Shown in pieces: positions 4,654-63,425 of a stretch of DNA of 64,000 nt. The position numbers and the translations under genes are program-made. The stretch is from positions 64,568 through 128,567 of the forward strand of contig JABACC010000013.1 in NCBI GenBank assembly GCA_014237915.1, read 5' to 3'. This stretch comes from Candidatus Paceibacter sp. (GTDB lineage Bacteria; Patescibacteriota; Minisyncoccia; Phycocordibacterales; GCA-2747955). Below the pieces are notes generated by a model, which worked only from the letters and a program-made list of their open reading frames with translations, did not search any database and was not told the DNA's origin. Each line of letters opens with the position of its first letter. The stretch's first letter is position 1.

Positions 4654-4687
4654 TAAATTTATTTTAGAAAATGTGGAAAATAAAAAA

Positions 4688-4728
4688 GGCGATTTTTTGG
4701 AAAAACAAAGTTTTTCCAAAAAATCGCC
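4688..4728 (-). terminator. tig terminator: long hairpin ggcgattttttggaaaaac-aaa-gtttttccaaaaaatcgcc followed by a T run
   Basis: Perfect ~19-bp inverted repeat placed 18 nt after the tig stop codon. Confidence 0.55.
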
Positions 4729-4745
4729 TTTTTTATTTTTATAAA

Positions 4746-9636: not shown

Positions 9637-10125
9637 ATGTTAAAGATTAAAAAATTAGAAGGCAAAAAAGCTCCGCTTTTTTGCCTCCAAAATCAAAACG
9701 ATGAAAAAGTTTGTTTAAATGATTTTTTAAAAGAAGGATTTGTTCTTTTGTATTTTTATCCCAAAGACTTAACAACTGGCTGCACAATTGAAGCTATTGG
9801 TTTTTCAGAACTCTCAAAAAAATTTATAAACAATAATATAAAAATCTTTGGAATTTCAAAAGATCTTCCCAAAACCCACACAAAATTTATAAAAAAAGAA
9901 GGTTTAAAAGTAGATTTACTTTCAGATATTGATGGAAAAATTTCTTCTCGTTATGGGGTTTATGTTGAAAAGTCTATGTACGGAAAAAAATATATGGGAA
10001 TTTCAAGAGAAAGTTTCTTGGTAAATACTTCTGGAAAAATAATCAAACACTGGGAAAATGTTTCTCCAAAAGACCACCCGGAAGAAGTTCTTTCTTTTTT
10101 TAAAGAGTTAAAAGAAAAAAAATAA
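9637..10125 (+). CDS. bcp: Peroxiredoxin Bcp (thiol peroxidase, AhpC/TSA family)
   Basis: It carries LYFYPKDLTTGCTIE, matching the FYPKDxTxGCT peroxidatic-Cys motif. Confidence 0.8.
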   Translation: MLKIKKLEGKKAPLFCLQNQNDEKVCLNDFLKEGFVLLYFYPKDLTTGCTIEAIGFSELSKKFINNNIKIFGISKDLPKTHTKFIKKEGLKVDLLSDIDGKISSRYGVYVEKSMYGKKYMGISRESFLVNTSGKIIKHWENVSPKDHPEEVLSFFKELKEKK

Positions 10126-15958: not shown

Positions 15959-16927
15959 TTAATTTTTTAAAAAAAGTCTTAATTTTGCAGATCGGGCCCT
16001 TTTGTTTTCTTTAACTTCAAAAAAATGTGGAATAATAACTTTTTTATTTAATCTTTTTCCCAAACTCTCATCTTCCCAAGATCTAAATTTTTTTTTAATT
16101 ATTTTATCTTCCAATGAATGAAAAGAAACAACGGCTAAAATTCCAGAAGAGTTTAAAGCAGAAAATATATTTTCCAAAGAATTTTCTAGATTTTCCAATT
16201 CATTATTAACCTCAATTCTTAAAGCCTGAAAAATTTTTGTTGCAGGATTAATCTTTTTATTTTTATAAAAAGGCCCTAAAACTCTTTCTAAAAAAGAAGA
16301 AAAATTAAAAACATTTTCAAAAATATCAGTTTCTTTTTTTCTCTCTTCAGTAATTTTTCTTGCAACTAAATTGCTGTGTTTTTCCTCACCATACTTTTTG
16401 AAAATTTCAGAAAGCTCTTCTTCTTCATAATTTTCTAAAATAAATCTTGCTGTTAAAGGATTTTCTTCATTTTTATCGGAAAGTCTCATGTCTAATTGTG
16501 CATCTTTTTCCAAAAAAGATATTCCTCTTCCAGATTTTTTTAATTGATCTGATGAAAAACCAAGATCTAAAACGGCTCTGTCTATTTTTTCAATATTTAA
16601 GTTTTTTAAAATATCTTTAATTTCTGAATAATTTTTCTGGAAAAAAAATTTATTTCCAGAAAATTTTTCTAATTTTTTTTTTGAAACACTTATTGCACTA
16701 CTATCTAAATCTGTTGCAATTAAAACCCCCGAGTTTTCTATTTTTTCTAAGATATTTTCACTATAACCTCCTCCACCTAAGGTTCCGTCGAAAACGATTA
16801 AACCTTTTTTTAAATCAAGTTTTTCTATAACTTCTTTTAAAAGAACTGGGGTATGAACTGATTTTTCATTTTCTGTTTTCATATCTTCTTTTTTGCTTTC
16901 ATTTATTTTTTTATTCATAAACAACAA
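15959..16927 (-). CDS. rsmH: 16S rRNA (cytosine1402-N4)-methyltransferase
   Basis: It has HTPVLLKEV, DGTLGGGGYS and the LGFSSDQL motifs. Confidence 0.85.
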   Translation of the reverse strand: MLFMNKKINESKKEDMKTENEKSVHTPVLLKEVIEKLDLKKGLIVFDGTLGGGGYSENILEKIENSGVLIATDLDSSAISVSKKKLEKFSGNKFFFQKNYSEIKDILKNLNIEKIDRAVLDLGFSSDQLKKSGRGISFLEKDAQLDMRLSDKNEENPLTARFILENYEEEELSEIFKKYGEEKHSNLVARKITEERKKETDIFENVFNFSSFLERVLGPFYKNKKINPATKIFQALRIEVNNELENLENSLENIFSALNSSGILAVVSFHSLEDKIIKKKFRSWEDESLGKRLNKKVIIPHFFEVKENKRARSAKLRLFLKN

Positions 16928-16953
16928 ATAAAAACAAAATTAAAATATAAATT

Positions 16954-17382
16954 CTAAACAATTCCCTCAAGCGACTCTGCCATTTTTTCTGGATTTTCTG
17001 TATTTTTCTTTAAATATGTATTCCAAGTTTTTTCGTCCCAAATTTCTGCCCTGTCTCCAACTCCAGCCCAAACAACTTTTTTAGAAATTTTGGCAAAATC
17101 TCTTAAATATTCTGGAATTAAAATTCTTCCAATAGAATCTACAGAAACCTCAACAGCTCCTGAAAGCATAAACCTTCCAAAACCTCTTTCACTTCCTTTT
17201 GATAAAGATAAATTTCCCAATTTGCCTGACATTTCTTTCCAAGATTTTCCTGTATAAACCGACAAACATTCATCTAGGCCTCTTGTGATAAAAATCTTTT
17301 TTCCAATTTCACCCTTAAATTTCGCTGGAACAGAAGTTCTTCCTTTTTGATCTATATTGTGTATGTATTCTCCGATAAACAT
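16954..17382 (-). CDS. mraZ: Transcriptional regulator MraZ
   Basis: MFIGEYIHNIDQKGRTSVPAKF and the duplicated DxxxR module match MraZ. Confidence 0.85.
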   Translation of the reverse strand: MFIGEYIHNIDQKGRTSVPAKFKGEIGKKIFITRGLDECLSVYTGKSWKEMSGKLGNLSLSKGSERGFGRFMLSGAVEVSVDSIGRILIPEYLRDFAKISKKVVWAGVGDRAEIWDEKTWNTYLKKNTENPEKMAESLEGIV

Positions 17383-17706
17383 AAAAGTAAAATAAAATCC
17401 TAAAAATTGTTTTCAAAACTTACAAAGCTTCAGGGGCCTTCTTAATAAATTAAAATGGCAATAAAAATTTATAAAAAGACCTTTGAGGCTCCATAAGTAA
17501 GGTTGTTGAATTTATTTAGGAATTTTTCTCTGAAAATTTCTCTAATAAATTTCTTTTTAATTTTTAGGAGCAATCGGTTCAGTGGTAATTTTGAAAAAAT
17601 CACAATCGAACCTAATTTCATTATATACCACTTTCTACCACTTGCAAACATTTTTTTCCACTTTTAAACAAACTTATCCACAACTTGGTTTTTTTGTAGA
17701 AAAAAA

Positions 17707-17753
17707 TTAGCGGGCAAAAAACAGCAACTTCGTTGCTGTTTTTTGCCCGCTAA
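17707..17753. terminator. gap terminator; perfect hairpin ttagcgggcaaaaaacagcaacTTCGttgctgttttttgcccgctaa
   Basis: It has the same architecture as the 2035-2085 and 45439-45485 elements. Confidence 0.6.
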
Positions 17754-17768
17754 TTTTTTTATTTTTTT

Positions 17769-22789: not shown

Positions 22790-23344
22790 TTACTTTTTAT
22801 TTTTACTTATTTTTTCAGGAACGGGTAAACCTAATTCTTCAAAAGTTATTTTGTTAAAATAATATTTACATTCAACACTTATTATATAATCAAGAACATC
22901 CTTGTATTTTTCTTTTCTAAACCAATCATTAAGTATATAAACATACTCGACTTTATAATTTAATTTTAAGAATATTTTTTGATATTGCTTTTTTTTAAAA
23001 TCACAAGTTTGTAATTTTTCATCAACAGACCCTTCTACTTCTTGATACTTAACTTCCAAAATAAAAATTGTATTTTCTTTAATTACATAAATTACATCAT
23101 CTGGTAACAATTTTTTAGAAATTATTTTTCTCCAATCAATGTTTTTAGCTTCTAAGAATTTATATAATTCATGTTTCCTAAAAGAATAAGCCACTGTCTT
23201 ATTATTAAAATTTATTTTATGACCAATAGTATCTTTTTTAGTAGTATATCCTTCTTTTTTGTCTAAAAAAACTAATATATCTACTTCTTTTTCAAACTCT
23301 ATTCCTGTTACAGTATTTCCTCCCCCTATTCCATTTTTTTTCAT
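22790..23344 (-). CDS. Candidate Type II restriction endonuclease (PD-(D/E)xK)
   Basis: LPDDVIYVIKENTIFILEVKYQ fits PD-x(n)-E-x-K. It lies immediately downstream of a DNA methyltransferase in the same operon. Confidence 0.45.
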   Translation of the reverse strand: MKKNGIGGGNTVTGIEFEKEVDILVFLDKKEGYTTKKDTIGHKINFNNKTVAYSFRKHELYKFLEAKNIDWRKIISKKLLPDDVIYVIKENTIFILEVKYQEVEGSVDEKLQTCDFKKKQYQKIFLKLNYKVEYVYILNDWFRKEKYKDVLDYIISVECKYYFNKITFEELGLPVPEKISKNKK

Positions 23345-23347
23345 ATT

Positions 23348-24193
23348 TTAATTTTTAACTAAATTTTTACCCGTATAGAAACTTGAAAAAACTTTAGATG
23401 TTTTTTTATTTTTTTGCAAATCTTCAAATCTCTTTATCGATAAATCTAGAAATTCTTTTTCTTTATCTATTCCAATAAATTTTCTTCCATATAGGTTTGC
23501 AATTATCCCAGTTGTGGAACTTCCCGTAAAAGGATCTAGTACAACATCTCCTTTGTTTGTACTAGACAGGACAATTCTTTTTAATAGATTTTCCGGTTTC
23601 TGTGTCGGGTGTTTACCAAATTTTTTTTCAATAGGTTTAGGTGTTGCCATAGACCAAACTGATCTCATCTGTAAATTTGGTTTTTTAATTTGATCTTCAG
23701 GCCAATCTCCGTTTTTCATTAAATCATAATTAAAGGTATGTTTGCCTTTCTTGTCTTTTCTTGCCCACACAAGTGTTTCATGACTTGCGGTAAAAAACCT
23801 GCAACTTAAATTAGGTGAGGCGTTCGGTTTAAACCAAGATACGTCATTTAAAATATGGAATTTATTTACCTGTAGCGCAAACCCACATTGGTAAATCGAG
23901 TGATAGGTTCCGCTTATCCAAATTGTTCCGTTTGGCTTTAAAACTCTCCTGCAAGCTTCTATCCAGGAAAGGTGGAAGTTAAAGTCTTCCTTAAGCCCGG
24001 AGCTCTTATCCCAATTTCCTTTGTCTACACTAACTCTTTTTCCCGACTGAACAGAAAAACCACCATTTGAGAGATTATATGGAGGATCTGCAAAAATCAT
24101 GTCAATTGAATTTTCTGGCAAAGAACTTAAAACTTCCAAGCAGTCATTTTGATAAAGTGAAAAATTTCTTTTTTTATAATAAACTTTTTTCAT
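23348..24193 (-). CDS. DNA methyltransferase, beta class, likely N6-adenine (possibly N4-cytosine)
   Basis: Motif IV IFADPPYNL precedes motif I LDPFTGSSTTG, which is the beta-class order. Confidence 0.8.
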   Translation of the reverse strand: MKKVYYKKRNFSLYQNDCLEVLSSLPENSIDMIFADPPYNLSNGGFSVQSGKRVSVDKGNWDKSSGLKEDFNFHLSWIEACRRVLKPNGTIWISGTYHSIYQCGFALQVNKFHILNDVSWFKPNASPNLSCRFFTASHETLVWARKDKKGKHTFNYDLMKNGDWPEDQIKKPNLQMRSVWSMATPKPIEKKFGKHPTQKPENLLKRIVLSSTNKGDVVLDPFTGSSTTGIIANLYGRKFIGIDKEKEFLDLSIKRFEDLQKNKKTSKVFSSFYTGKNLVKN

Positions 24194-24294
24194 AGAAATA
24201 TTTTAGCAAAAATAATTTTTTATACCAAATCATGAATTTGTTTTGAGTGGGAAATTGCGGAGCAATTTCCCACTCGAAAAAATTTTAAAAAATA

Positions 24295-24324
24295 AAAAGT
24301 GCGCACCGAAGGTGCGCACTTTTA
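24295..24324 (-). terminator. obg terminator hairpin aaaagtgcgcaccgaaggtgcgcactttt
   Basis: It is near-identical to 58644-58673, with compensatory g/t and c/a changes in the stem. Confidence 0.5.
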
Positions 24325-26050: not shown

Positions 26051-28162
26051 ATGAAAAAAAAATATACAGAGCCGTACAGGCCAGAAAAATATGAAGAACA
26101 AATTTATAAATCTTGGGAAGATTCTGGATTTTTTAATCCTGACAATTTACCAGATTTAAAAAATGGCCAAAAAAGAAAGGAAAATTTTTCAACAATAATG
26201 CCTCCTCCAAATGCCACAGGAAGATTACACGCAGGCCACGGAACAGATATGACCTTAAAAGATATTTTAACCAGATATCACAGAATGACTGGAAAAAAAA
26301 CTTTATTTTTACCCGGTTCTGATCACGCTGGTTTTGAAGCTCAAGAAACTTACGAGCGCAAAATTTCCAAAGAAGGAAAAAGTCGTTTTAAAATGGAAAG
26401 AGAAGAATTTTATAATGGAATTTATGATTTTGTAATGGAAAATAAAAAAAATTCTGAAAATGACATTAAAAAACTTGGAACTTCTTGCGACTGGTCTCGA
26501 AATACTTTTACCCTTGATCCGCAAATTGTTTCAAAAGTTTGTGATACTTTTATAAAAATGTATGCTGATGATTTGGTTTACAGAGGAAAAAGATGCATTC
26601 ATTGGAATCCAAAATTTCAAACTTCCCTCTCAGATATTGAAACAAAATTTGAAGATAGAAAAGATAAATTTTATTATTTTAAATATGGACCTTTTGTAAT
26701 TGGAACGGCTCGGCCAGAGACAAAATTTTCAGATAAATACATTGTCGTTCACCCAGATGACGAGCGATATAAAAAATATTCTCATATGCAAGAATTTGAA
26801 GTTGAATGGATAAATGGACCTATAAAAGCAACTTTACTAAAAGATGAAGTGGCTGACATGGAAATGGGTTCAGGAGCTATGACAATTACCCCTTGGCATT
26901 CTCAGGTTGATTTTGAGCTTGCTCAAAAATATAATCTTGAAATAGAACAAATTATAGACTGGAACGGAAAACTTTTGCCAGTTGCAGAAGAATTTGCGGG
27001 AATGAAAATTTTGGAAGCTCGAGAAAAAATTGTAGAAAAATTAGAAAAAAAAGGTCTTTTAGAAAAAATAGACGAAAATTACCAGCACAATGTGAGGCTT
27101 TGCGAGCGAACAAATGTTGTTGTTGAGCCCCAAATAAAAGATCAATGGTTTGTAAAAATGGAAGATTTTGCTAAAAAAAATCTTAAAGCTCTTGATGAAA
27201 AAAAAGTTAGAATTTTAACACCAGAGCAAGAAAAACAATTTCGTCATTGGATGGAAAACCCGATTGATTGGAATATTTCACGGCAAATTGTTTGGGGAAT
27301 TCAAATTCCAGCTTGGTTTAATGGTAGCGAAATAAAAATTCAAAAAGAAAATCCGGGAGATGGCTGGGTGCAAGACTCGGACACTTTTGATACTTGGTTT
27401 TCCTCTGGGCAGTGGCCTCTTTTAACTTTGGGTTTTCCAGACGGATCTGATATGGAATATTACCCCACGACTCTAATGGAAACTGGAAAAGATCTTGTTT
27501 TTAAATGGGTTCCAAGAATGTTGATGTTTGGGCTTTATTTAGACGGAAGAGTTCCTTTTAAAGATATTTATTTTCATGGAATGGTTTTAGATAAAAATGG
27601 AAAAAAAATGTCAAAATCAAAAGGAAATGTTCTCTCCCCTGTTGATTTGGCGGAAGAATTTGGAACAGATGCTACCCGAATGTCTTTTGTGGTAGCTAAT
27701 CCTCCCGGATCTGATATGCCACTTTCTCGAGAAAAAGTTTTGGCTTACAAAAAATTTGCAAACAAACTTTGGAATATAGCAAGATTTATTTATTCAAATA
27801 CAGAAAATTTTGATTATCAAAATTTTGATGAAAATTCTTTAGAAGATTATCAAAAAGAAAAAATTTCAGAATTGGAAAATTTCAAAAAAGAATATCAAAA
27901 AGAAATTGAAGATTATAAAATTTATTTAGTGGCTGAAAAAGTTTATCATTATATTTGGCACGAAGTGGCTGATAAAATTATTGAAGAAGTGAAAGATTCT
28001 GTTTTTTCTGATGAAAAAAATAAAAATAATCAGTTTTTACTTTTAAAAATTTTAGAAGAATCTCTAAAAATGCTTCATCCTTTTATGCCTTTTATCACGG
28101 AAGAGGTTTGGAAAGATTTTCCAAAAGAAAATAAAAATTTGTTAATGGTGGAAGAGTTTTAA
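26051..28162 (+). CDS. valS: Valine--tRNA ligase (short, lacks C-terminal coiled coil)
   Basis: It has PPPNATGRLHAGHG as the HIGH motif, GSDHAGFEAQ, DWNISRQIVWGIQIP and KMSKSKGN as the KMSKS motif. Confidence 0.8.
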   Translation: MKKKYTEPYRPEKYEEQIYKSWEDSGFFNPDNLPDLKNGQKRKENFSTIMPPPNATGRLHAGHGTDMTLKDILTRYHRMTGKKTLFLPGSDHAGFEAQETYERKISKEGKSRFKMEREEFYNGIYDFVMENKKNSENDIKKLGTSCDWSRNTFTLDPQIVSKVCDTFIKMYADDLVYRGKRCIHWNPKFQTSLSDIETKFEDRKDKFYYFKYGPFVIGTARPETKFSDKYIVVHPDDERYKKYSHMQEFEVEWINGPIKATLLKDEVADMEMGSGAMTITPWHSQVDFELAQKYNLEIEQIIDWNGKLLPVAEEFAGMKILEAREKIVEKLEKKGLLEKIDENYQHNVRLCERTNVVVEPQIKDQWFVKMEDFAKKNLKALDEKKVRILTPEQEKQFRHWMENPIDWNISRQIVWGIQIPAWFNGSEIKIQKENPGDGWVQDSDTFDTWFSSGQWPLLTLGFPDGSDMEYYPTTLMETGKDLVFKWVPRMLMFGLYLDGRVPFKDIYFHGMVLDKNGKKMSKSKGNVLSPVDLAEEFGTDATRMSFVVANPPGSDMPLSREKVLAYKKFANKLWNIARFIYSNTENFDYQNFDENSLEDYQKEKISELENFKKEYQKEIEDYKIYLVAEKVYHYIWHEVADKIIEEVKDSVFSDEKNKNNQFLLLKILEESLKMLHPFMPFITEEVWKDFPKENKNLLMVEEF

Positions 28163-28843
28163 GATTTTTTTTCTTCTTTCTTCATTTCTCTTGTTTACTT
28201 TATTTTCAATTTCAGAAAGATTAACTCTTTCTATAACAGAAAGTTTGGAGGCTCTTCCCCACTTATTGTTGCCGTCCTGTCCGTGAGAGCTTTCATCTCC
28301 TTTTTCAGATCTGATTAAATATAAAAAATTTCCACTATTTGGACCTATGTATCTACTCATGTAGTCATCTGAATAATAGGCTTTAGGATGATTATCGTCT
28401 CGTTCATCTTTTGCTAAACCATCTATATCCCAAATTTCTTTACCTGTATTATCTTCTTTAGGATTTATTTCAGATTTTGATAAATGGTAACCAATATCCC
28501 AATTATTTTTGATAGCTTGAGCTAATAAAAATTCTACAAAATCTTCTTCTGTTTTTTCGTCATTGTCAATTTTTTCTTTCCAAACCCTAAGTAAATTTTT
28601 TCTAATTTCAAAAGGATAAGACAGAATCCTTTTTCTATCTTCAACGATGTATTTTAAAATTTTTTCTCTTATTTTTTTTATTGAATCCTCATTAAAATAA
28701 ACTTCATAAGCCTCATCTTCTAGTTTTTTAGTGATTTCATTACAAACCTCTTCAGCAAAAAGTAAATTTCTTATTCTTTCATTTTCTTTTTCTTTTTCTT
28801 TATCGTTTTTAGAAAAATAAAAAGTTTTATTAAAATTTTCCAT
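28142..28843 (-). CDS. Hypothetical protein (233 aa)
   Basis: ORF only. Its 3' end overlaps the valS 3' end by 21 nt in a convergent arrangement. Confidence 0.4.
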   Translation of the reverse strand: MENFNKTFYFSKNDKEKEKENERIRNLLFAEEVCNEITKKLEDEAYEVYFNEDSIKKIREKILKYIVEDRKRILSYPFEIRKNLLRVWKEKIDNDEKTEEDFVEFLLAQAIKNNWDIGYHLSKSEINPKEDNTGKEIWDIDGLAKDERDDNHPKAYYSDDYMSRYIGPNSGNFLYLIRSEKGDESSHGQDGNNKWGRASKLSVIERVNLSEIENKVNKRNEERRKKILKLFHH

Positions 28844-28857
28844 AATCTTATTATATA

Positions 28858-29577
28858 CTAAACATTTATTTTGTCAATAAAAAATCCTCTTTTTTTATTG
28901 AATAAAAAAGAAATTTCCATATACGAATTTATTTTAAAAGTCTTAAAAATATCTAAAATTTCTTCGTAAACTTTATCTCTATCTTCTTGACTCAAATCAT
29001 TTAATTTTTCTTTTGGAATAATATTTGTTTCTCCAAAAATATCTTTATAAATTAAATAAGAAAAAATATTCCCTTCTACTTTTTCTTCGAGGAAAAAATC
29101 TTTTTTATCTTCTGAATTTAAGATTTTTTCGACTCCTTTTAAATCTTCAGGTTTTTCGATTTCAAAAAGCTTATTTTTTTTGAAATTTTTCAAAACTGAA
29201 GGTTGTGGAAAATTTTTCCAAATATCTAAAAAATTTTCTCCATCTTTAAATTCCAAAAAAGGTAAAACTCTGAAACTATTTTTACTTAAAAAATTTTTAC
29301 TATTTACAACACTTCCAAAAACTAATTTATTCATCAACGAATTTGAAATTTTCTTTTCTTCTTTTGTTGTTAAGCTGATTTTTTCTAAATTTTTATCAAA
29401 TAAAGTATTAAAAAAAACATAATTCGAATTTAAAATTTCTTCCTCTATTTTTTGGTAATCTTGAAAATTTTTTATTTTTTTGATTTCAAAATCAGTATTT
29501 ACTAAAATTTTTGAAATTAAATCTTTAATTTTTTCAAAATCTTTTTCTTTTTCTCCAATTATTAAAACTTTTTCCAT
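28858..29577 (-). CDS. Hypothetical protein, weak ATP-grasp-like C-terminal half
   Basis: The C-terminal pattern VEGNIFSYLIY...YMEISFLFNKKRGFFIDKIN loosely resembles an ATP-grasp core. Confidence 0.3.
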   Translation of the reverse strand: MEKVLIIGEKEKDFEKIKDLISKILVNTDFEIKKIKNFQDYQKIEEEILNSNYVFFNTLFDKNLEKISLTTKEEKKISNSLMNKLVFGSVVNSKNFLSKNSFRVLPFLEFKDGENFLDIWKNFPQPSVLKNFKKNKLFEIEKPEDLKGVEKILNSEDKKDFFLEEKVEGNIFSYLIYKDIFGETNIIPKEKLNDLSQEDRDKVYEEILDIFKTFKINSYMEISFLFNKKRGFFIDKINV

Positions 29578-29579
29578 AA

Positions 29580-30926
29580 TTAAATACTAAAATTTTTATA
29601 AAAATCTTCATCGCTATCTTCTCCGTCTTTTTTCTCTTCGTTATAATTTTCAAAATCAATAGTCGTCTCATTTTCTTTTTTACCAAAATCTTCTCCAATT
29701 ATAATTTCACTGCTTTGGATATTTTTTTCAAGCTCTGAAAATTTTTCTGAAAAAATTTCTTCTTCTGTTTTTTCTTTGTTTTTGAGCGGAAAAAGCGGAG
29801 CTTTTTCCGCTTCAACATATTTTTCAACATTTTCTATTTTTTCCGCATCTTTATTTTCCCTTCTAAAATCATTATTTAAATCTTTTTTTAACTCATCTAA
29901 TTTTTCATCATACGAAATACTTCCTAAAGTATAAGAAATTTCTTTATTTTCTTCTTCTAAATTTTCCCTCTCATCTTTTTCTTCAAAATTCTTTTCATCA
30001 TTTTGATTAAAATCCAAACTTGGATTTTGATCAAATAGAAAATCGTCTTCGGGTTTTTTTTCTTCTGGTTTTTGCGGAAAAAGCTTCGCTTTTTCCGCAT
30101 CTCCATTTTTATCAATAATATTTAAAATATTTTGTAAACCTTCTTTTGAAAAAACATCCACCATTAATTTCATTCCTTTTTTTCTTTTTTCAACTTTCAC
30201 TGGCGAACCAAGTTTATCAGAAATTTTATTTTCAATTTCTCTAATCTCAGGATCAAAAACATCTTTTTTAGATTTACCCACCACAATATTTCTTGCAATT
30301 TTTTCAGCTTCTCTAACTGTTAAATCATATTCTAAAATCTCTTCCAATAATTTTTTCTGATCTTCCTCTTTTTCTTTCAACATTAAAAGCGGGCGTGTAT
30401 GCCCTTCTGAAATTTTTCCCGCCTGCAAAGCTTCCAAAATATTTTCAGGTAAAAGCAAAATTCTCAAAGCGTTTGAAATATATTCTCTGGATTTTCCCAT
30501 TTTTTCAGCAATTTGATCATGAGTTAGAGAAAATTCCTCTGAAAGCCTTTGAAAAGATTTTGCTTTATCGATTGGATTTAAATCCTCTCTTTGTAAATTC
30601 TCAATAATGGCAAGTTCTAATTTTTCACCTTCCGTGTTTTCTCCTTCTCTGATAATTGCGGGGATTTTTTTTAGGTTTGCTATTTTAGAAGCTCTAAATC
30701 TTCGCTCTCCTGCAATAATTTCAAAAAAAGAATTTTCTAAATCATCAGAATCTGAAATGGAAGATTTTTTTCTAACCACCACTATCGGTTGTAAAACACC
30801 ATACTGGGAAATTGAAGAAGCTAAATTATTTAATTTTTCTTCGTCAAAAAATTTTCTTGGCTGGTCTGGATTTGGAATAACTTTTTCTAAATCCAAATAA
30901 AAGACAGAGTTTTGTTTAAAATTCAT
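29580..30926 (-). CDS. parB: ParB/Spo0J-like protein with a long acidic C-terminal extension
   Basis: The N-terminus has VIPNPDQPRK...LQPIVV and the FEIIAGERRFRASK (GERRxRA) CTP-binding box. No parA is adjacent. Confidence 0.75.
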   Translation of the reverse strand: MNFKQNSVFYLDLEKVIPNPDQPRKFFDEEKLNNLASSISQYGVLQPIVVVRKKSSISDSDDLENSFFEIIAGERRFRASKIANLKKIPAIIREGENTEGEKLELAIIENLQREDLNPIDKAKSFQRLSEEFSLTHDQIAEKMGKSREYISNALRILLLPENILEALQAGKISEGHTRPLLMLKEKEEDQKKLLEEILEYDLTVREAEKIARNIVVGKSKKDVFDPEIREIENKISDKLGSPVKVEKRKKGMKLMVDVFSKEGLQNILNIIDKNGDAEKAKLFPQKPEEKKPEDDFLFDQNPSLDFNQNDEKNFEEKDERENLEEENKEISYTLGSISYDEKLDELKKDLNNDFRRENKDAEKIENVEKYVEAEKAPLFPLKNKEKTEEEIFSEKFSELEKNIQSSEIIIGEDFGKKENETTIDFENYNEEKKDGEDSDEDFYKNFSI

Positions 30927-45408: not shown

Positions 45409-45438
45409 AAATAAATTATAACAAAAAAAATTCTAAAA

Positions 45439-45485
45439 TTGGGCGCAAAAAAATGAAACTTCGTTTCATTTTTTTGCGCCCAATT
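45439..45485. terminator. Hairpin ttgggcgcaaaaaaatgaaacTTCGtttcatttttttgcgcccaa between tRNA-Thr and dnaE
   Basis: Same architecture as the 2035-2085 and 17707-17753 elements. Confidence 0.55.
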
Positions 45486-45509
45486 TTATAATTTTTTACC
45501 TCCAAGTTG

Positions 45510-45583: not shown

Positions 45584-45675
45584 TTTTTTTATTTTATTAA
45601 ATAAATTCGTATTTTTGTGTTTTTGTCTTTTGTGGATTTTGCTTCGCAAAATCCACAAAAATTTTACCACAAAAA

Positions 45676-46434
45676 TTATAAAAATTTTTCTCTATATTTT
45701 GACATTACAATTCCCGCAGAAACCGAAACATTTAAAGATTCTACTTTTTTTAAAATCGGGATATTTATTATAAAGTCAGATTTTTTTAAAGTTAAAACTG
45801 AAACTCCTCCCCCTTCCGATCCTAAAACAAAAGCAGTGTTTGTGTCAAAAGAGTTTTCAGAAAAAATTTCTGATCTTTCACTTTTTCCATCAAGAGCATA
45901 CATCCAAAATTTTTCTTTTTTTAATTTTTCAATTAAATTATTTATATTTGAAACTTTAATAATTGGCACAGAAAAAATATTTCCAGCTGAAGATTTGAAA
46001 ACCGCTCCGTTTACAGGCGCGGAATTTTTCTCTTCGAGAAAAATTCCGCAAACCCCAAAAGCTGCCGCCGAGCGCACAATAGCCCCCAAATTTCCCACAT
46101 CAGAAATTCCATCCAAAATTAAAACTAAATTTTTCTCAGGTTTTAAAAAATTATTTTTCCAATTATCAAAATTAAGATATTCAAAATTTTCAATTTGGGC
46201 TAAAATATTTTGGTGATTAACCTCCCCCACTTTTTTAAACGCAAAATCTTTGCTAACTATTTCTATTTCCACTTTTTTTGGAAAGTTTTCTATTTTAGAA
46301 GTAAAATTTTTAACCTCAGCTTTTTTCAAATCAACAAAATAAAATTTTTTTATTTTGTTTGCATTATTTTTCAAAACTTCTGAAATTACATTTTTCCCAT
46401 AAATGAAAAAACCTTTTTCTTTTTTATTATTCAT
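45676..46434 (-). CDS. TrmH/SpoU-family RNA 2'-O-methyltransferase (RlmB-like)
   Basis: SpoU motifs are present (ILDGISDVGNLGAIVRSAAAFG, ALDG, FVLGSEGGG). The plus-strand ORF 45617..46216 is its shadow. Confidence 0.75.
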   Translation of the reverse strand: MNNKKEKGFFIYGKNVISEVLKNNANKIKKFYFVDLKKAEVKNFTSKIENFPKKVEIEIVSKDFAFKKVGEVNHQNILAQIENFEYLNFDNWKNNFLKPEKNLVLILDGISDVGNLGAIVRSAAAFGVCGIFLEEKNSAPVNGAVFKSSAGNIFSVPIIKVSNINNLIEKLKKEKFWMYALDGKSERSEIFSENSFDTNTAFVLGSEGGGVSVLTLKKSDFIINIPILKKVESLNVSVSAGIVMSKYREKFL

Positions 46435-50146: not shown

Positions 50147-50167
50147 GCGCGCACCTTTGGTGCGCGC
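50147..50167 (+). terminator. Hairpin gcgcgcacc-tttg-gtgcgcgc followed by TTATTATTTTTT
   Basis: Plus-strand intrinsic terminator just after the 38-codon ORF. Confidence 0.5.
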
Positions 50168-50230: not shown

Positions 50231-51067
50231 TTAAATACTAAAAAAATTTATTCCAAAAAATTTTCTTAATTTTCCAATTTTTGTTCTTTTTATTGAAAGT
50301 GCCAAGCCTTTTGTTTCTAATTTTTCAGCAATTTGCTCAGAAAGAACTCGCATATAAGTTCCTGAAGAACACCGGCATTTTATTTTTAAAATAGTGAATT
50401 TTTTATTTTCTGGAAAATTTTCAAAAACTTTTTTCCATTTTTGACGGATTTCCGCTCTGCGGAAATCCGCCCCTAACTGCTTTGATTTTTCCTCAACTTT
50501 TTTTGGTTTTTCAATTTTCTCAAATATATATTTTTCTAAATCTTTTTTTGAAATTTCTCTTTTTTCTAAAAATTTTAAATAATAAATTTCAACTTCTTTT
50601 TTAGGAATTTCTATTTCGTTTTCCTTTCCTTCTAATTTCCACAAAAAAAGCGGTTTTCCTAAAACTGTTTTTGATGAAAACAACGGATAAGGAAAAAGAT
50701 TTTTTCCTTTAAAAGAATTTAAAATTTTTTGGATTTTTTTAGGTGCAAAAAGCGAAGCTTTTTGCACCTCAATATTTTTTCTATCATTTTCAAAAAAATT
50801 TCCCAAACCTAAAACATCTCCTGTGTCTGAAAAAAAATCAAGCAAAATTTCAACCTCATATTCTTTATCTAAATTTAAATACTTATCTCTTTTTTTACAT
50901 TCATCTCCAACAAGAACAAGCATCTTCCCTTCTGCCATCGGGTCTAATCTCCCAGCGTAGGCCATTTTTTCATTTTCATAAGCTGAATTTTCTTTTTTAA
51001 AATTTTCAATAACTTCCAGTGGAGTTTGCCCAACTTTTTTATTTAAAACTAAAAATTTTTTATTCAT
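50231..51067 (-). CDS. truB: tRNA pseudouridine(55) synthase
   Basis: MAYAGRLDPMAEGKMLVLVGDECKK matches the TruB catalytic Asp motif (GTLDPxAxG). Confidence 0.75.
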   Translation of the reverse strand: MNKKFLVLNKKVGQTPLEVIENFKKENSAYENEKMAYAGRLDPMAEGKMLVLVGDECKKRDKYLNLDKEYEVEILLDFFSDTGDVLGLGNFFENDRKNIEVQKASLFAPKKIQKILNSFKGKNLFPYPLFSSKTVLGKPLFLWKLEGKENEIEIPKKEVEIYYLKFLEKREISKKDLEKYIFEKIEKPKKVEEKSKQLGADFRRAEIRQKWKKVFENFPENKKFTILKIKCRCSSGTYMRVLSEQIAEKLETKGLALSIKRTKIGKLRKFFGINFFSI

Positions 51068-53764: not shown

Positions 53765-55012
53765 ATGAAAACATACAAAAAAAATGAAGAATTAAAGAAA
53801 GATATGCCTGAAAAACAAGTGTTTTATTATGTGGACGAAAAAGAAGAACTTAATGTTTTATCCAGAGAAGTCTATAAAAAAAGACCTCTAGAGGTTCATT
53901 ATCCTTTTAAAAAGGATGGTGGGCCAAAATATAAATACATTAAATCTGTAGAATTTCATAATATTTCACCATCATTAATTAAGGGTGTCTTAAAATCACC
54001 AAAAATGGGACTCGGTTTTACTCGTTATCTCAGTCCTGTTGTATACGAATTAGAAAAATTTGAAAATATACAAAAAATAATAATATCTAAAAACGACCAA
54101 TCCTATTTTGATAAAAAAAGTATTACTTTTAATATTTGTGACCTTGAGAAAATGTTTAGGTGCTTAAAACCGTTTAAAGATGTCCAGTCCAGTAAATTAA
54201 AGACAACTTCTAATAATTTACTTTCGGAAATATTTCCAGAAAAAATAAAAGAGGTTGGGCACTCTTATACTAAAAATGAGCTAGGTATTTTTATAAGAGA
54301 AAATAAACTAACGCCTGATGAATTATCTGAAAAAGATGTGGAGAGTGTCATCTCGTTAATTCCTAAAAATATAAGTACTGAAAAAGTTTTCTTCCAAGCA
54401 GAAGAAAAAATAAATTTCATTAAGTTGAACAAAATCAAAGAAGATTTTAATAAATTACTTAATCAAAAAACAGACACCTCTAAGCTAGAAGAAAAATGTC
54501 AACAATTTTTTAAAAAAAATAGCTGGGTACTTTCCAATATCCTTTCTGTTCCTGTAGCCATACTGAAGGACAAGGCTTACGTAGGGGGTAAAGACTATAA
54601 AGACACAGGTGGACGAATCGCTGACTTTCTATATAGTAATAAATTTACAAAGAATGTTTGTGTAATTGAAATTAAAACTCCACTAAAAAAAATTATTGAC
54701 GCAAAAACACCATACAGAAAGCCTGATGTGTTTAGTCTTGGAAAAGAACTCACGGGTGGTATCGTCCAGGTATTAGACCAGAAGGATAATTTGCAGAAAG
54801 ATTTTTATAAGCTCTCTCAAGGTGATGAATTCAAATCCTTTAATCCTAAAGTTTTATTAGTAATAGGTAGGATTTCTTCGCTAACTAGTGAACAGTTGAA
54901 ATCATTTGAATTATTCAGGGGTAACATTAAAGATGTTGAAGTGGTAACTTTTGATGAATTGAATGAGAGGACAGATATAATATTCGGTAATTTTCTAGAT
55001 AACAAAAAATAA
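53765..55012 (+). CDS. Shedu-like anti-phage defence protein candidate (DUF4263-type PD-(D/E)xK nuclease domain)
   Basis: The C-terminal half carries GRIADFLY...VCVIEIKTP (D...ExK), then GGIVQVLDQ, then VLLVIGRISSLT and EVVTFDEL. This matches the ordered DUF4263/SduA motifs as recalled. It is a single gene between two tRNAs, and its composition differs from the flanks by eye. Confidence 0.5.
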   Translation: MKTYKKNEELKKDMPEKQVFYYVDEKEELNVLSREVYKKRPLEVHYPFKKDGGPKYKYIKSVEFHNISPSLIKGVLKSPKMGLGFTRYLSPVVYELEKFENIQKIIISKNDQSYFDKKSITFNICDLEKMFRCLKPFKDVQSSKLKTTSNNLLSEIFPEKIKEVGHSYTKNELGIFIRENKLTPDELSEKDVESVISLIPKNISTEKVFFQAEEKINFIKLNKIKEDFNKLLNQKTDTSKLEEKCQQFFKKNSWVLSNILSVPVAILKDKAYVGGKDYKDTGGRIADFLYSNKFTKNVCVIEIKTPLKKIIDAKTPYRKPDVFSLGKELTGGIVQVLDQKDNLQKDFYKLSQGDEFKSFNPKVLLVIGRISSLTSEQLKSFELFRGNIKDVEVVTFDELNERTDIIFGNFLDNKK

Positions 55013-55215: not shown

Positions 55216-55232
55216 CAAAAAGTTAAAAAAAT

Positions 55233-55300
55233 TTTGAGAAAGAATAGCCAAAAAAATGGAAAGCAATTGCTTTCCATTTTTTTGGCTATTCTTTCTCAAA
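55233..55300. terminator. Very long perfect inverted repeat (29-bp arms, AATT loop) between tRNA-Thr(+) and tsf(-)
   Basis: The arms are tttgagaaagaatagccaaaaaaatggaaagc and gctttccatttttttggctattctttctcaaa, separated by aatt. Confidence 0.55.
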
Positions 55301-55310
55301 ATTTTTAAAA

Positions 55311-56759: not shown

Positions 56760-56804
56760 AATGAGCGATATTTTAACAAATTTTCAGTTTTTAGCAAAGA
56801 AAAA

Positions 56805-56833
56805 GCGGGCAAAAAGCTTCGCTTTTTGCCCGC
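56805..56833. other. Hairpin gcgggcaaaaagc-ttc-gctttttgcccgc in the divergent rpsB/thrS intergenic region
   Basis: It is the same GC-clamp/TTCG family. It lies in the 5' region of both genes rather than a 3' end. Confidence 0.4.
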
Positions 56834-56858
56834 TTTTTCTTTTTACACTTAATTTTTA

Positions 56859-58620: not shown

Positions 58621-58643
58621 ATTTAAAAAATTTGAAAAAAATA

Positions 58644-58673
58644 AAAAGCGCGCACCGAAGGTGCGCGCTTTTT
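58644..58673 (+). terminator. thrS terminator aaaagcgcgcaccgaaggtgcgcgctttt
   Basis: It is near-identical to 24295-24324, with compensatory stem substitutions. Confidence 0.55.
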
Positions 58674-58711
58674 ATTTTTTTCAAAATTTTAGTTTTTTAA
58701 AATATTTTTTA

Positions 58712-58738
58712 GGCGGAAAAAGCTTCACTTTTTCCGCC
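58712..58738. repeat. Palindromic element ggcggaaaaagc-ttca-ctttttccgcc with conserved 5' flank aaatatttttt (left copy bounding the 58.7-61.3 kb islet)
   Basis: It shares ~45 bp with 61292-61337 in direct orientation. The same core occurs in-frame inside parB. Confidence 0.5.
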
Positions 58739-58753
58739 CAAAAAATAAACTCA

Positions 58754-59116
58754 TCAATCTATCTCAAATTTTAAAAAATTTTTAATTCTTTTCTTATCCT
58801 CGATTGCTTTATTGCCTTTAAAATAAATATCAATAAAGAAAATTTCATTTTTTTCTATATTATAAAAATAAATAAGTCTTATTCTATCTGAGCTTTTCAA
58901 AGATCTGCATCTAACCCTAACTTTAAAAACTTGTTCAGAAAAACCCATTATTGGATCAATTCTTATTATTCTAGTGCCCTCCTTATTTTTCCCTGTTGGA
59001 AATTTACTGATTATTTTTTCCACTATAGCCAAATCTTCTTCTAAAGATATATATTTTTTCTTTAGCTTTTCAAAATCTTTTGAAAATTCTTTCGTTTCCT
59101 CTATTCTGATATTCAT
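58754..59116 (-). CDS. RelE/ParE-superfamily toxin candidate
   Basis: It is 120 aa with an N-terminal IEETKEFSKDFEKL and a C-terminal RIRLIYFYNIEKNEIFFIDIYFKG pattern. It lies directly downstream of an HTH/Panacea antitoxin gene. Confidence 0.5.
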   Translation of the reverse strand: MNIRIEETKEFSKDFEKLKKKYISLEEDLAIVEKIISKFPTGKNKEGTRIIRIDPIMGFSEQVFKVRVRCRSLKSSDRIRLIYFYNIEKNEIFFIDIYFKGNKAIEDKKRIKNFLKFEID

Positions 59117-59121
59117 AAAAT

Positions 59122-59811
59122 CTATTTAACGGAAAACTCTTCGCTTCTATAAAAAACATACTCGTAATCAATATCTTCTAAATCATTGGCTACAGCCCAA
59201 GGTATATCTCTATGAGAAATATTCGATATCTCTGTAGCATTTTTTTCTGAATACTTTTTTAAAACATCATTTATTAAATCAAGTTCTTGGCCAGTAAGTA
59301 AAGATAAGTCTGGATTTTCTCGTGGTAAAAATTTTTTTTGCTCTTTTTTATAATGGGAAGATTTTACCTCTTCTATTTTTTTATCTTCTTTCATTTTTTT
59401 AATAAGTCTTTCAAAATTTCTAGGAGTTGGCCCGTGTTTATTTTTAAAATAAGTAAGTCCCATTAACTGCTTTTGATATTTTTCATAATAATCAAAATCA
59501 ATAAAATATAAAATTTTATACAATACTGTTTGCCCAACATTTGGTTTGGCTCCAATTTGATTTAAAATATATAAAAAAACTTGTCTAAACTTATCTTCTT
59601 TTTCTTGTGGAATATTTATCTTTAAATTTTTCTCTTGGTTTTCTTTTTCAAAGAAATTAAAAAATTCTTTGATTTTATCTTCTTCATCTTTTTTTAATTT
59701 TCTTTCTCCTTTTTCTATTTTTATTAAAGTTGGTCTAGAAACACCAATCTCTTTTGCTAAATACTCTTGAGAAATGGAAAACTCCTTTCTTTTTTTCAAA
59801 ATATTAATCAT
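59122..59811 (-). CDS. XRE-family HTH fused to a Panacea (DUF4065, SocA-like) domain: PanA-type antitoxin candidate
   Basis: The N-terminal HTH reads ISQEYLAKEIGVSRPTLIKIEKGER. The C-terminal part reads VGQTVLYKILYFIDFDYY...GLTYFKNKHGPTPRNF, matching the Panacea core (LQKLLYxxxG...GPV). Confidence 0.6.
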   Translation of the reverse strand: MINILKKRKEFSISQEYLAKEIGVSRPTLIKIEKGERKLKKDEEDKIKEFFNFFEKENQEKNLKINIPQEKEDKFRQVFLYILNQIGAKPNVGQTVLYKILYFIDFDYYEKYQKQLMGLTYFKNKHGPTPRNFERLIKKMKEDKKIEEVKSSHYKKEQKKFLPRENPDLSLLTGQELDLINDVLKKYSEKNATEISNISHRDIPWAVANDLEDIDYEYVFYRSEEFSVK

Positions 59812-59907
59812 ATAATTAACATTATAAACAAATATGTAAAATATTACAAATTTTTTTGTAAATTTAATAAAAATACATTTCCTGTTTTAAACTTAAAAAA
59901 AATAAGC

Positions 59908-60156
59908 TTAAAAATCAAAATCAATTTTTCTTGTAATTTCTGTTAAATATTCTCTCAAATATGAATTAAAAGATTCACTAAAAAATATTGTTGTTTTTTC
60001 TTTTTTGTATAAAACAAATAAAGCTTCTGTTTGTTTTTTTATTTCTTTGTCTTTTGTTTTTTCCGTTACAAAAATAATAAGATCCATAAATTTATTTTCA
60101 GAAATAAATTTTGAATATTTTTGTTTTTCTTGTTTTGTTAATTTTATTGTTTTCAT
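59908..60156 (-). CDS. Hypothetical 82-aa protein preceded by a ~200-nt structured leader
   Basis: ORF preceded by a GC-rich leader (60196-60330) and an extended -10 at 60368-60376. Confidence 0.4.
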   Translation of the reverse strand: MKTIKLTKQEKQKYSKFISENKFMDLIIFVTEKTKDKEIKKQTEALFVLYKKEKTTIFFSESFNSYLREYLTEITRKIDFDF

Positions 60157-60195
60157 AAAAATTTTTTTAAAACTCTGAGCTTTAAAATTTTTTAT

Positions 60196-60330
60196 AAAAA
60201 CAAAAAGCCCACCACCAGGGTATCCCGAAGGATATATAGAAGGTTTCCCCGCTATAACCAGAACAACTAGCCCACTGATGATGGGTTTTCTATGTTGTTC
60301 TGGTTTATTTGTTTCACCATACTAATTTTT
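60196..60330 (-). ncRNA. GC-rich structured RNA element, candidate cis-regulatory leader or riboswitch (unclassified)
   Basis: The minus strand has nested hairpins: CCAGAACAAC...GTTGTTCTGG enclosing CCCAU-CAUCA-GUGGG, then UAUAG-CGGGGAAACCUU-CUAUA, then UAUCC-UUCG-GGAUA, then GGUGGUGGGCUUUUUGUUUUU. It sits between a TGCTAAAAT promoter and the ATG at 60156. Confidence 0.35.
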
Positions 60331-60367
60331 TTTTTTGAAAAAAATCAGGTTAGGCTATTACTTCCCT

Positions 60368-60376
60368 ATTTTAGCA
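60368..60376 (-). promoter_or_regulatory. Extended -10 TGCTAAAAT (minus strand), part of a repeated 16-mer TATTTTAGCATAAAAA
   Basis: The same 16-mer occurs at 61212-61232 upstream of the DUF3800 gene. A related TGCTAAAAT lies at 25366-25374 upstream of obg. Confidence 0.4.
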
Positions 60377-60498
60377 TAAAAAGAAGGTGATGAATGAATT
60401 TTAATTTATTGTTGATAAGTTTTTTATAAATTTAAATTTATTATGTTAATATTATTTATGAACCATTGTTGTATAAATTCAGAAAAAAGTTCCGGGCC

Positions 60499-61152
60499 TT
60501 AAGGGATATCCGGGCTTTTTTCTTTTTTCATTAAGCTTTTTTTAACAATTATAGATTTATAGTGTTCCGTTTTTATAAAACCTTTTTTTATGCCTTTCTG
60601 GAAAATATCTAAAACTTGTAAACAAGGGCAGTACCTAGAATCTATTTGTATTATTTTACTAAAATTTGGTAAATTATAATTACCGAGTAAATATTTTTCT
60701 AATCCATCTTTATAATCTTTTGAATCATTATATTTATCAAAAATTATTTCAATACTTCCAGAAAAATCTTTCAACTTTGAATATTTAACAATATATTCAA
60801 GACCTTGCCTTAAAATAAAATTTCTAAAATCATTATATTCCCTACTTTCTAAATAAGGCCCTCGATAATTTTCTTTTTCTATATTTAAATTGAAAAATAA
60901 TATCTTTTCATTATTCAATAGAAAATCCATGCAACTAAAAAAATTCTTAAAATTTGCGCCCCTAATTGCTTTCAACTCTTTCTTGTAATTATTGAATAAT
61001 TTAAATCCGCACACTAGTTTCTCTATCTCGTTAACTTCATCTTCGGCAATGAGTAAAAAATTAAGATTAAAATTATCCGAACTATTATTGGTTTTATATC
61101 CTGGGTCACCACTTTCATCGATAAATAAAAAAATTGTACTACTATCTAACAT
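60499..61152 (-). CDS. DUF3800-family protein
   Basis: The N-terminal IFLFIDESGDPG matches the DUF3800 (Y/F)IDESG signature. The C-terminus has a CLQVLDIFQ (Q..D) motif. Confidence 0.5.
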   Translation of the reverse strand: MLDSSTIFLFIDESGDPGYKTNNSSDNFNLNFLLIAEDEVNEIEKLVCGFKLFNNYKKELKAIRGANFKNFFSCMDFLLNNEKILFFNLNIEKENYRGPYLESREYNDFRNFILRQGLEYIVKYSKLKDFSGSIEIIFDKYNDSKDYKDGLEKYLLGNYNLPNFSKIIQIDSRYCPCLQVLDIFQKGIKKGFIKTEHYKSIIVKKSLMKKEKSPDIP

Positions 61153-61227: not shown

Positions 61228-61302
61228 TAAAAAATACAGAGAAATAGCAGATTATCGAAACTAATTCACTTTTTATTTTTATAAAATTTTTAAATATTTT
61301 TT

Positions 61303-61331
61303 AGGCGGAAAAAGCGAAGCTTTTTCCGCCT
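61303..61331. repeat. Palindromic element aggcggaaaaagc-gaa-gctttttccgcct with 5' flank aaatatttttt (right copy); also the gatB terminator
   Basis: It is a direct repeat of 58700-58745. Confidence 0.5.
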
Positions 61332-61354
61332 AAAAAACAAAATACTTTAAAATT

Positions 61355-63360: not shown

Positions 63361-63383
63361 TTTATTTTTAAAAAAAATAAATT

Positions 63384-63412
63384 AATGGATTTTGCCTTCG
63401 GCAAAATCCATT
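63384..63412 (+). terminator. Hairpin aatggattttgcc-TTCG-ggcaaaatccatt
   Basis: 13-bp stem with a UUCG loop followed by an A/T run. Confidence 0.5.
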
Positions 63413-63425
63413 AAAAAACAAAAAA

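Follow-up and report, generated by a model that had tools for sequence, protein, structure and literature searches.

Within a 64,000-nucleotide stretch of a Candidatus Paceibacter contig (JABACC010000013.1, positions 64,568 to 128,567; hereafter the window, 27.5% GC), the 25-nt palindrome GCGGAAAAAGC-N3-GCTTTTTCCGC occurs at four sites, two inside the open reading frame (ORF) of parB (29786-29810 and 30074-30098) and two between genes (58713-58737 and 61305-61329). We interpret it, with roughly even confidence, as a structure-constrained hairpin that is translated through in a permissive, disordered linker of the ParB protein, and not as an insertion of the Rickettsia palindromic element (RPE) type that built the ParB tail.

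A search of the window with the pattern GCGGAAAAAGCNNNGCTTTTTCCGC, tolerating up to three mismatches, returned exactly these four sites, with one mismatch at 58713-58737, and 100 dinucleotide-preserving shuffles returned none. The two coding and two intergenic copies that a sequence-only reading of this DNA had reported are thus confirmed, although its in-ORF coordinates were off by about 7-12 nt. Both parB copies extend one base pair further, so that each is a perfect 27-nt palindrome, and both are read in one frame, as D276-AEKAKLFP-Q285-K286 and E372-AEKAPLFP-L381-K382; translation bears out the peptides previously assigned to them, EAEKAPLFPLK and DAEKAKLFPQK. As RNA, the parB palindromes fold with -19 to -21 kcal/mol (z about -5 to -6), and the 25-mer copies in general form GC-rich stem-loops with stems of 12-21 bp and -16 to -28 kcal/mol, around the spacers GAA, TTC and GGA.

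That the repeat in parB is a nucleotide-level feature, and not a conserved peptide, is supported by the rare codons in its arms (GCG, 9% of Ala; CCG, 9% of Pro; CTT, 24% of Leu), by the occurrence of the 25-mer outside genes as well, and by the homologous proteins: among the 120 best Patescibacteria ParB homologs (304-767 aa, median 330), none has AEKAxLFP, LFP or AEKA in its tail. From codon usage, the chance that either parB peptide would be encoded as a palindrome is about 1e-4. On this point the sequence-only reading, which had named the same peptides in orthologs as the observation that would speak for a protein motif, was right to propose a nucleotide element.

The two parB copies are one in-frame duplication of a module of at least 86 nt, not two independent insertions. 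They sit in an 86-nt ungapped, in-register direct repeat with a spacing of exactly 288 nt (96 codons), which accounts for their shared frame, and at the peptide level LNIIDKNGDAEKAKLFPQKPEEKKPEDDF aligns with IENVEKYVEAEKAPLFPLKNKEKTEEEIF. Outside the 25-mer, the module flanks are identical at 39 of 61 positions, against 22.5 +/- 4.3 for codon-phase-matched pairs from the tail (P=5e-5), and an independent intergenic null gave P=1e-4; semi-global alignment against random tail segments, which is insensitive in low-complexity sequence, gave P=0.33 and 0.09. Module B was probably the source copy, because it includes the end of the last ParB_C helix (residues 261-275 in the AlphaFold model); palindrome B begins 6-7 residues past the ParB_C domain. 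Since the arms are identical at 22 of 22 positions while the flanks have drifted to 64% identity (0.64^22, about 5e-5), the stem evolves more slowly than its surroundings, either by purifying selection on pairing or by homogenization between the copies.

The palindromes do not explain why this ParB has 448 aa, as had been proposed. Its N-terminus is canonical, as previously recognized: GERRFRASK (residues 73-81) lies within the Pfam domain ParB_N (11-112), which is followed by HTH_ParB (114-214) and ParB_C (225-269), and ParB homologs point to the Paceibacteria/Campbellbacteria neighborhood. The tail (residues 272-448; 21% Glu, 11% Asp, 15% Lys; net charge -27) contains a linker made of at least five degenerate x-D-E-K-x-x-E-E-K-K repeats. 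The AlphaFold model is confident for the core, to about residue 275, and has a predicted local distance difference test score (pLDDT) below 50 for residues 277-315, 317-337, 358-382 and 406-439, segments that enclose both palindrome peptides. The palindromes account for about 18 of the 177 tail residues, and 118 of the 120 Patescibacteria homologs likewise have a linker of variable length, an acidic stretch and an end of the form [YF]x3-4Fx[ILVM]; the long tail is therefore the usual variable, disordered linker of this lineage plus a conserved tip, and was not created by the palindromes. The end is close to DLYSIKNFS[ILV] in 113 homologs of this set, and Y443 and F446 are invariant in a 56-sequence alignment. 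This layout, in which a linker of very variable length, an acidic run and LYxxxNFS[ILV] follow one another, recalls the disordered linker and acidic-hydrophobic tip of SSB, and the analogy suggests that the ParB tip may be a docking peptide. No description of the tip was found in the literature searched.

The design of the parB stems is shared by hairpins throughout the window. A census of perfect stems of at least 8 bp, with at least 4 G/C and a loop of 3-7, found about 27 hairpins. Nearly all combine a G/C clamp and an A/T tract with an apex of the form GC-NNN-GC or C-NNN-G that holds GAA or TTC, and the terminators of relatives have the GAA/TTC apex as well. Arms around CGAAG/CTTCG pentamers are bimodal in length, with either at most 4 or at least 11 or 12. 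Against Rfam at the gathering threshold, tRNAs were the sole matches. Inside ORFs, eight perfect hairpins with stems of at least 10 bp were observed, compared with 0.15 +/- 0.45 after within-gene synonymous codon shuffling (56 kb), that is, about 50-fold above the expectation from the proteins and their codon usage; one of the eight (56796-56842) is probably located upstream of where thrS truly starts. In relatives, about 47 kb of coding DNA contained only one clear in-ORF hairpin, and the parB genes none. It is this excess, together with a conserved motif of bcp that is encoded as a palindrome, that holds the main interest.

The core AAAAAGC-N3-GCTTTTTT also occurs in bcp and truB, and all four in-ORF copies read K-A-x-L-F. 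The bcp palindrome, which involves no indel, codes for the EGKKAPxFxL motif conserved in the family; it reads GGC AAA AAA GCT CCG CTT TTT TGC CTC, including four rare codons and a change from Thr/Ser to Cys, whereas three relatives with KKAPLF use non-palindromic codons (for example, GGG AAG AAA GCA CCG TTG TTT TCA CTT). Because these relatives have the same peptide without the palindrome, the comparison shows the bcp palindrome, as far as the aligned genes can tell, to have arisen in place by substitutions and not by insertion. The trmH hairpin falls in an ungapped alignment to the structure of the E. coli methyltransferase YjfH (PDB 1gz0), and the gatB hairpin shows no gaps against the A. 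aeolicus and T. maritima GatB structures; judged from these alignments, the hairpins of bcp, gatB and trmH are clearly not insertions. Insertion is not required for an element of this kind, since the bcp sibling encodes a conserved motif without an indel and the relatives lack the palindrome.

The intergenic copies had been described as terminators. This label is doubtful, because neither copy has a U-tail on either strand, each reading a T-run on the 5' side and an A-run (TAAAAAA or CAAAAAA) on the 3' side, and because the consensus terminator scan did not call them, unlike the classical bidirectional terminator at 58631-58685 that adjoins 58712-58738. A stem-loop in the 3' untranslated region, serving as an exonuclease barrier or a processing site, would fit better. 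The T-run/A-run flanks lengthen the intergenic stems to 19-21 bp, with about 21 bp reached through T-run/A-run pairing at 58712-58738, a copy located 16 nt past the stop of the minus-strand ORF 58754-59116; hairpins of this design were found 16-22 nt past stop codons. Another hairpin, with reversed flanks, lies at 45628-45660 between the trmH stop and the tRNA-Thr gene, where the classical terminator comes only past the tRNA. The flanks of the intergenic pair are identical at 40 of 61 positions in register (P=1e-4), and between the parB and intergenic pairs the flanks are only weakly similar (uncorrected, best P about 0.007); the palindrome is shared by these two lineages only. Inside parB, termination of sense transcription, which the sequence-only reading had also considered, is unlikely: an A-run and not a U-tract follows each hairpin, and the downstream tip must be translated.

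The direct repeats of about 85 nt that hold the two intergenic copies border a low-GC islet between thrS and gatB. Its GC content is 19-25%, versus 28-36% in the neighboring thrS and gatB, and from its sequence the islet (58754-61152) looks like an inserted accessory cassette, in which no integrase was seen.

In the interpretation that we favor, a hairpin at the junction of ParB_C and the linker, sharing the window-wide design (G/C clamp, A/T tract, GC, a 3-nt loop that is mostly GAA/TTC, and Watson-Crick arms), was duplicated with its module 96 codons downstream. Template switching during replication is known to perfect inverted repeats and to invert their spacers, also in coding DNA (PMC5941160, PMC8604942, PMC7202029), and may be the mechanism here; it would produce the perfection of the arms, the 3-nt spacers in both orientations and the pattern seen in bcp, and it fits the long palindromes at 2023-2097 and 55227-55306. 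The stem most likely acts as an RNA (or single-stranded DNA) stem-loop. Copies past stop codons would be likely to shape or protect the mRNA 3' end, and the parB copies would be tolerated and read through, given a linker that accepts AEKAxLFP and a sense strand without a U-tract after the stem.

Several points weigh against this interpretation. All of the functional roles given to the hairpins are ones that we infer, and the analysis covers about 73 kb of one genome, to which even the nearest relatives show no more than about 60% identity. Why the parB and intergenic pairs have identical 11-nt arms is not accounted for; this could be convergence under a shared design, which by a rough estimate is not improbable given about 8 x 22 hairpin pairs, or it could reflect one transfer. 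Unbiased arm-to-arm templating would not keep copies A and B identical, so that selection or inter-copy conversion would be needed in addition. Neither this interpretation nor any other explanation tested accounts for the A-runs that flank all four AAAAAGC-N3-GCTTTTT in-ORF copies, an A5-6 run 5-8 nt upstream and an A4-7 run directly downstream on the sense strand, for which the base rates are about 0.20 and 0.19 per site, respectively.

We compared the 25-mer with known systems of small palindromes. RPEs are about 150 bp long, carry a conserved peptide ORF of 30-50 aa and have entered unrelated genes in dozens of independent insertions (PMC10969869). The parB copies resemble them in being palindromes in frame inside a housekeeping gene, absent from orthologs and at a permissive site, since both peptides fall in the segments of low pLDDT. 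However, the unit shared by the parB and intergenic copies measures only 25-27 nt (9 codons), a single duplication accounts for the two parB copies, and the siblings in bcp, gatB and trmH involve no indel. The RPE-like in-frame insertion of the sequence-only reading is therefore not sustained; its observation holds, and its interpretation survives in part, for the nucleotide palindrome and the permissive site but not for the RPE insertion or the origin of the tail.

The intergenic copies are similar to repetitive extragenic palindromes (REPs) and the REP doublets termed REPINs in being short (20-40 nt) GC-rich hairpins whose non-genic copies lie 3' of stop codons, ahead of the true terminator. 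This position past the stop codon is where REPs act as stabilizers of mRNA 3' ends. REPs carry a conserved GTAG or CGTC tetranucleotide at one end (PMC3733652), whereas the 25-mer ends in A/T/G-GCGG...CCGC without such a tag. In addition, neither a REP-associated tyrosine transposase (RAYT) nor a Y1 transposase was found in the 73 kb (62 window ORFs, tblastn), the palindromes are perfect and not imperfect, and half of the copies are intragenic. Inverted repeats made by template switching share the perfect arms, the minimal 3-nt spacers in both orientations (GAA/TTC) and the clustered multi-nucleotide and amino-acid changes, such as the T/S-to-C change with four rare codons in bcp (PMC5941160, PMC8604942, PMC7202029); the in-gene density, the uniform GC-clamp/A-tract/GC-triloop and the conservation of arms between duplicates, however, exceed what neutral mutation predicts. 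Repeated terminator-like GC-rich stem-loops at gene ends have the same form and placement, but the GGCGG copies lack a U-tract on both strands, and classical A-run/hairpin/T-run terminators stand separately in the same spacers. As for intrinsic terminators, the U-tract is missing and A-runs follow the parB stems on the sense strand. Finally, the parS site in Bacillus subtilis spo0J is also a perfect palindrome within a parB coding sequence that is kept against codon preference, yet the 25-mer does not resemble the 16-bp TGTTNCACGTGAAACA, has another geometry and shares its design with many other arms. The 25-mer is thus not an RPE, a tagged REP, a canonical intrinsic terminator or a parS; by analogy, it would be most like a REP-type 3' stem-loop in its intergenic form and a template-switch-perfected inverted repeat in its coding form.

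An unlikely alternative is that the parB copies are functional intragenic RNA signals, acting as antisense terminators, as barriers to 3'-to-5' decay, as a ribosome pause at the junction or as a stimulator of -1 frameshifting. The conservation of the arms relative to their flanks and the stability of the hairpins agree with such roles, and in antisense orientation copy B, with the tail TCTCCATTTT, was called terminator-like, if marginally. The antisense U-tracts, however, begin 5-9 nt beyond the stem, too far for intrinsic termination, and the antisense-terminator reading was rejected for this reason. A -1 frameshift could take place at U_AAA_AAU, which precedes hairpin B with a 6-nt spacer (30099-30113), and it would yield the ParB core followed by 25 basic residues with the end RRRFSI*, reminiscent of the true end NFSI*; F[ST][ILV] stands before 0.36% of -1-frame stops. 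This was judged a probable coincidence, because U_AAA_AAU is not a canonical slippery heptamer, the shifted tail lacks the invariant Tyr of the tip, and in truB and bcp the corresponding arrangement would lead to nonsense products, truncated at once. The FSI end of TruB, which is not conserved among TruB homologs, was likewise set aside as a coincidence. The other in-ORF hairpins, moreover, share no common position or tail, and an intermediate of non-stop decay would be harmful.

It is similarly doubtful that the palindrome is a small mobile element, of the RPE, REP or miniature inverted-repeat transposable element (MITE) type, inserted in the parB linker, the truB loop and intergenic DNA. The occurrence of identical units of 25-27 nt both inside and outside genes, sharply delimited between the two pairs, the rare codons in the arms, the preservation of the frame when 27 nt are removed and the position of the truB copy in a length-variable loop all agree with mobility, as does a related Campbellbacteria contig that harbors a family of perfect palindromes of about 95-99 bp together with an IS200-type Y1 transposase gene. 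On the other hand, there are only two independent lineages, each pair being a segmental duplicate, so that one transfer at most would be needed; for that single link between the parB and intergenic lineages, a mobile mini-element is possible. Target-site duplications, terminal repeats and the GTAG/CGTC tag are all absent at the copies, none of the 62 window ORFs encodes a transposase, and a tblastn search of the 73 kb with the relative's protein gave no Y1 homolog. The 8.8 kb of contig added leftward contained neither a further 25-mer nor an in-ORF hairpin. Scanning for CGGAAAAAGCNNNGCTTTTTCCG gave 23 matches in 185,579 species genomes and 24 in the JGI metagenomes, single-copy and scattered over unrelated taxa, in collections that contain neither the source genome nor its close relatives. 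The siblings in bcp, gatB and trmH are demonstrably not insertions, and the truB loop (50741-50769) is equally long in the nearest relatives.

Rather unlikely, too, is the more far-reaching proposal that this genome of the candidate phyla radiation (CPR) actively writes perfect GC-clamped palindromes, in essential genes as well, by a hairpin-directed process, that these mark borders and that selection retains them. The process would be either template switching at very high frequency or a recombination system with specificity for hairpins of single-stranded DNA, and the borders marked by hairpins would be those of the 2.6-kb low-GC islet and of the 288-nt parB linker module. If this were true, coding sequence would be remodeled around nucleic-acid structure at a density not described for bacteria.

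We consider it very improbable that a dimeric protein binds the palindrome as double-stranded DNA, for example as a non-canonical parS within parB. Its perfect Watson-Crick dyad symmetry is kept by rare codons and conserved position by position, two copies lie inside parB, and no canonical parS (up to two mismatches) was found in the window or at the parB loci of two relatives. However, the ParB helix-turn-helix (GKSREYISNALRILLLP...GHTRPLL) looks canonical, in that we take it to resemble closely those of ParBs that bind canonical parS. In addition, the 11-bp arms and the variable 3-bp spacer are unlike the 16-bp parS, the same design with quite different arms occurs throughout the window, as would be expected if structure rather than sequence were recognized, and the intergenic copies lie directly past stop codons.

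The notion that the linker uses AEKAxLFP as a functional short linear peptide motif, with the DNA palindrome as a by-product, can point to its retention in both modules and its resemblance to the conserved KKAPLF of bcp, but is close to refuted by its absence from all 120 homologs, the synonymous positions and rare codons that are identical in both copies, the same sequence in non-coding DNA and synonymous shuffling, which almost never gives such palindromes.

Other hairpins of the window also form families. GGAAATTGC-N3-GCAATTTCC comprises the intergenic hairpin 24245-24275 and that of gatB (61483-61507), whose 9-nt arm core recurs in the former; (T)GG(C)GGATTTTGC is found at 45628-45660, 63382-63414 and 21-49 of the added left contig piece; and G(C/T)GCGC(A/G)CC at 24295-24323, 50147-50167 and 58631-58685 and at 110-148 and 2179-2219 of the added left piece. 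Given these near-identical families, the 25-mer is not alone in having arms that recur at more than one locus. The hairpin at 56796-56842 is separated by 37 nt from the start of rpsB and by about 34 nt from that of thrS, which is probably at 56875, and a mechanical ORF call from 56761 runs through it; a terminator is not expected at that place, and the hairpin may be a leader or an attenuator.

Very long perfect palindromes, with a perfection far beyond the needs of termination, fill spacers between convergent genes. A perfect 80-bp palindrome (55227-55306) directly follows tRNA-Thr, and arms of 36, 30, 29 and 26 nt with 100% complementarity are found at 2023-2097 (75 nt), 4677-4739, 17700-17760 and 45434-45488. 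They suggest arm-to-arm copying or a tolerance of long palindromes. In the Campbellbacteria assembly GCA_002747955.1, three perfect palindromes of about 95-99 bp belong to one family (contig positions 293-391, 7284-7376 and 13520-13618); where its copies differ, both arms show the mirrored change, and a gene for an IS200-type Y1 transposase is close by (16694-17116). These palindromes and the Y1 gene may constitute a REPIN-like system in CPR bacteria.

The parB gene appears to be an orphan. No parA gene was found in the 64 kb around it or at the parB loci of two relatives, and the next two ORFs (28858-29577 and 28142-28843) have no Pfam match. The convergent leuS (26051-28162, plus strand) overlaps the 3' end of the parB-operon ORF 28142-28843 by 21 nt (28142-28162), with no hairpin between them; the next strong plus-strand hairpins are the parB palindromes, 1.6-1.9 kb away. 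Elsewhere, the window encodes a type II restriction-modification-like pair (an N6/N4 DNA methylase and a PD-(D/E)XK nuclease; 22790-24193) and a Shedu (SduA) defense gene between tRNA-Asn and tRNA-Thr (53765-55012).

Table 1 Positions in the window of the palindromes, their repeat modules and the associated genes and hairpins. A dot marks features without an assigned strand.
Feature	Position	Strand	Remarks
parB ORF, 448 aa	29580-30926	-	core residues 1-271 (ParB_N, HTH_ParB, ParB_C), 177-aa acidic linker, then C-terminal tip
C-terminal tip DEDFYKNFSI	29583-29612	-	ParB residues 439-448; motif conserved lineage-wide at the linker end
Palindrome A (27-nt, perfect)	29785-29811	-	25-mer 29786-29810; sense-strand loop UCC; encodes E372-AEKAPLFP-L381
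Palindrome B (27-nt, perfect)	30073-30099	-	25-mer 30074-30098; sense-strand loop GAA; encodes D276-AEKAKLFP-Q285
Module A of the 86-nt repeat (IENVEKYVEAEKAPLFPLKNKEKTEEEIF)	29751-29836	-	288 nt (96 codons) downstream of module B
Module B of the 86-nt repeat (LNIIDKNGDAEKAKLFPQKPEEKKPEDDF)	30039-30124	-	contains the end of the last ParB_C helix
Solo arm GCGGAAAAA	29838-29846	-	within GATGCGGAAAAAA, encodes DAEK; 28 nt upstream (sense) of palindrome A; no partner arm
Intergenic copy GGCGG...CCGCC	58712-58738	.	one C.A mismatch on the plus strand, G.U on the minus strand
Intergenic copy, perfect 19-nt arms (TTTTTTAGGCGGAAAAAGC GAA ...)	61297-61337	.	18 nt past the gatB stop codon; no U-tail
Low-GC islet, 2.6 kb	58754-61152	-	bracketed by the intergenic copies; HTH+Panacea antitoxin, DUF3800 protein, two unknown ORFs
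Sibling palindrome AGGCAAAAAAGC TCC GCTTTTTTGCCT in bcp	9660-9686	+	encodes the conserved GKKAPLFCL motif
Sibling palindrome AGGTGCAAAAAGC GAA GCTTTTTGCACCT in truB	50741-50769	-	read VQKASLFAP; length-variable surface loop
Upstream A-runs of the four in-ORF copies	9646-9652, 29820-29826, 30107-30113, 50778-50784		
In-ORF perfect hairpin, 11-nt arms, truB	50445-50469	-	
In-ORF perfect hairpin, 14-nt arms, SpoU/TrmH-type methyltransferase (trmH)	46019-46049	-	
In-ORF perfect hairpin (CAGGAAATTGC GTA GCAATTTCCTG), gatB	61483-61507	-	ungapped conserved stretch
Sibling hairpin, 22-nt arms (...GCGGGCAAAAAGC TTC...)	56796-56842	.	classical A-run/T-run flanks; divergent rpsB-thrS spacer

With regard to ParB, the practical conclusion is a negative one: within a normal linker-plus-tip design, the hairpins are passengers or a fine-tuning, and the conserved tip may matter more than the palindrome for the biology of ParB in Patescibacteria. 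Should the pattern seen in the window hold across the genome, the housekeeping genes of a reduced CPR genome would provide an unusually clear example in which nucleic-acid structure overrides codon preference and even the choice of amino acids; this would come either from a strong mutational bias due to template switching or from selection for in-gene hairpins.

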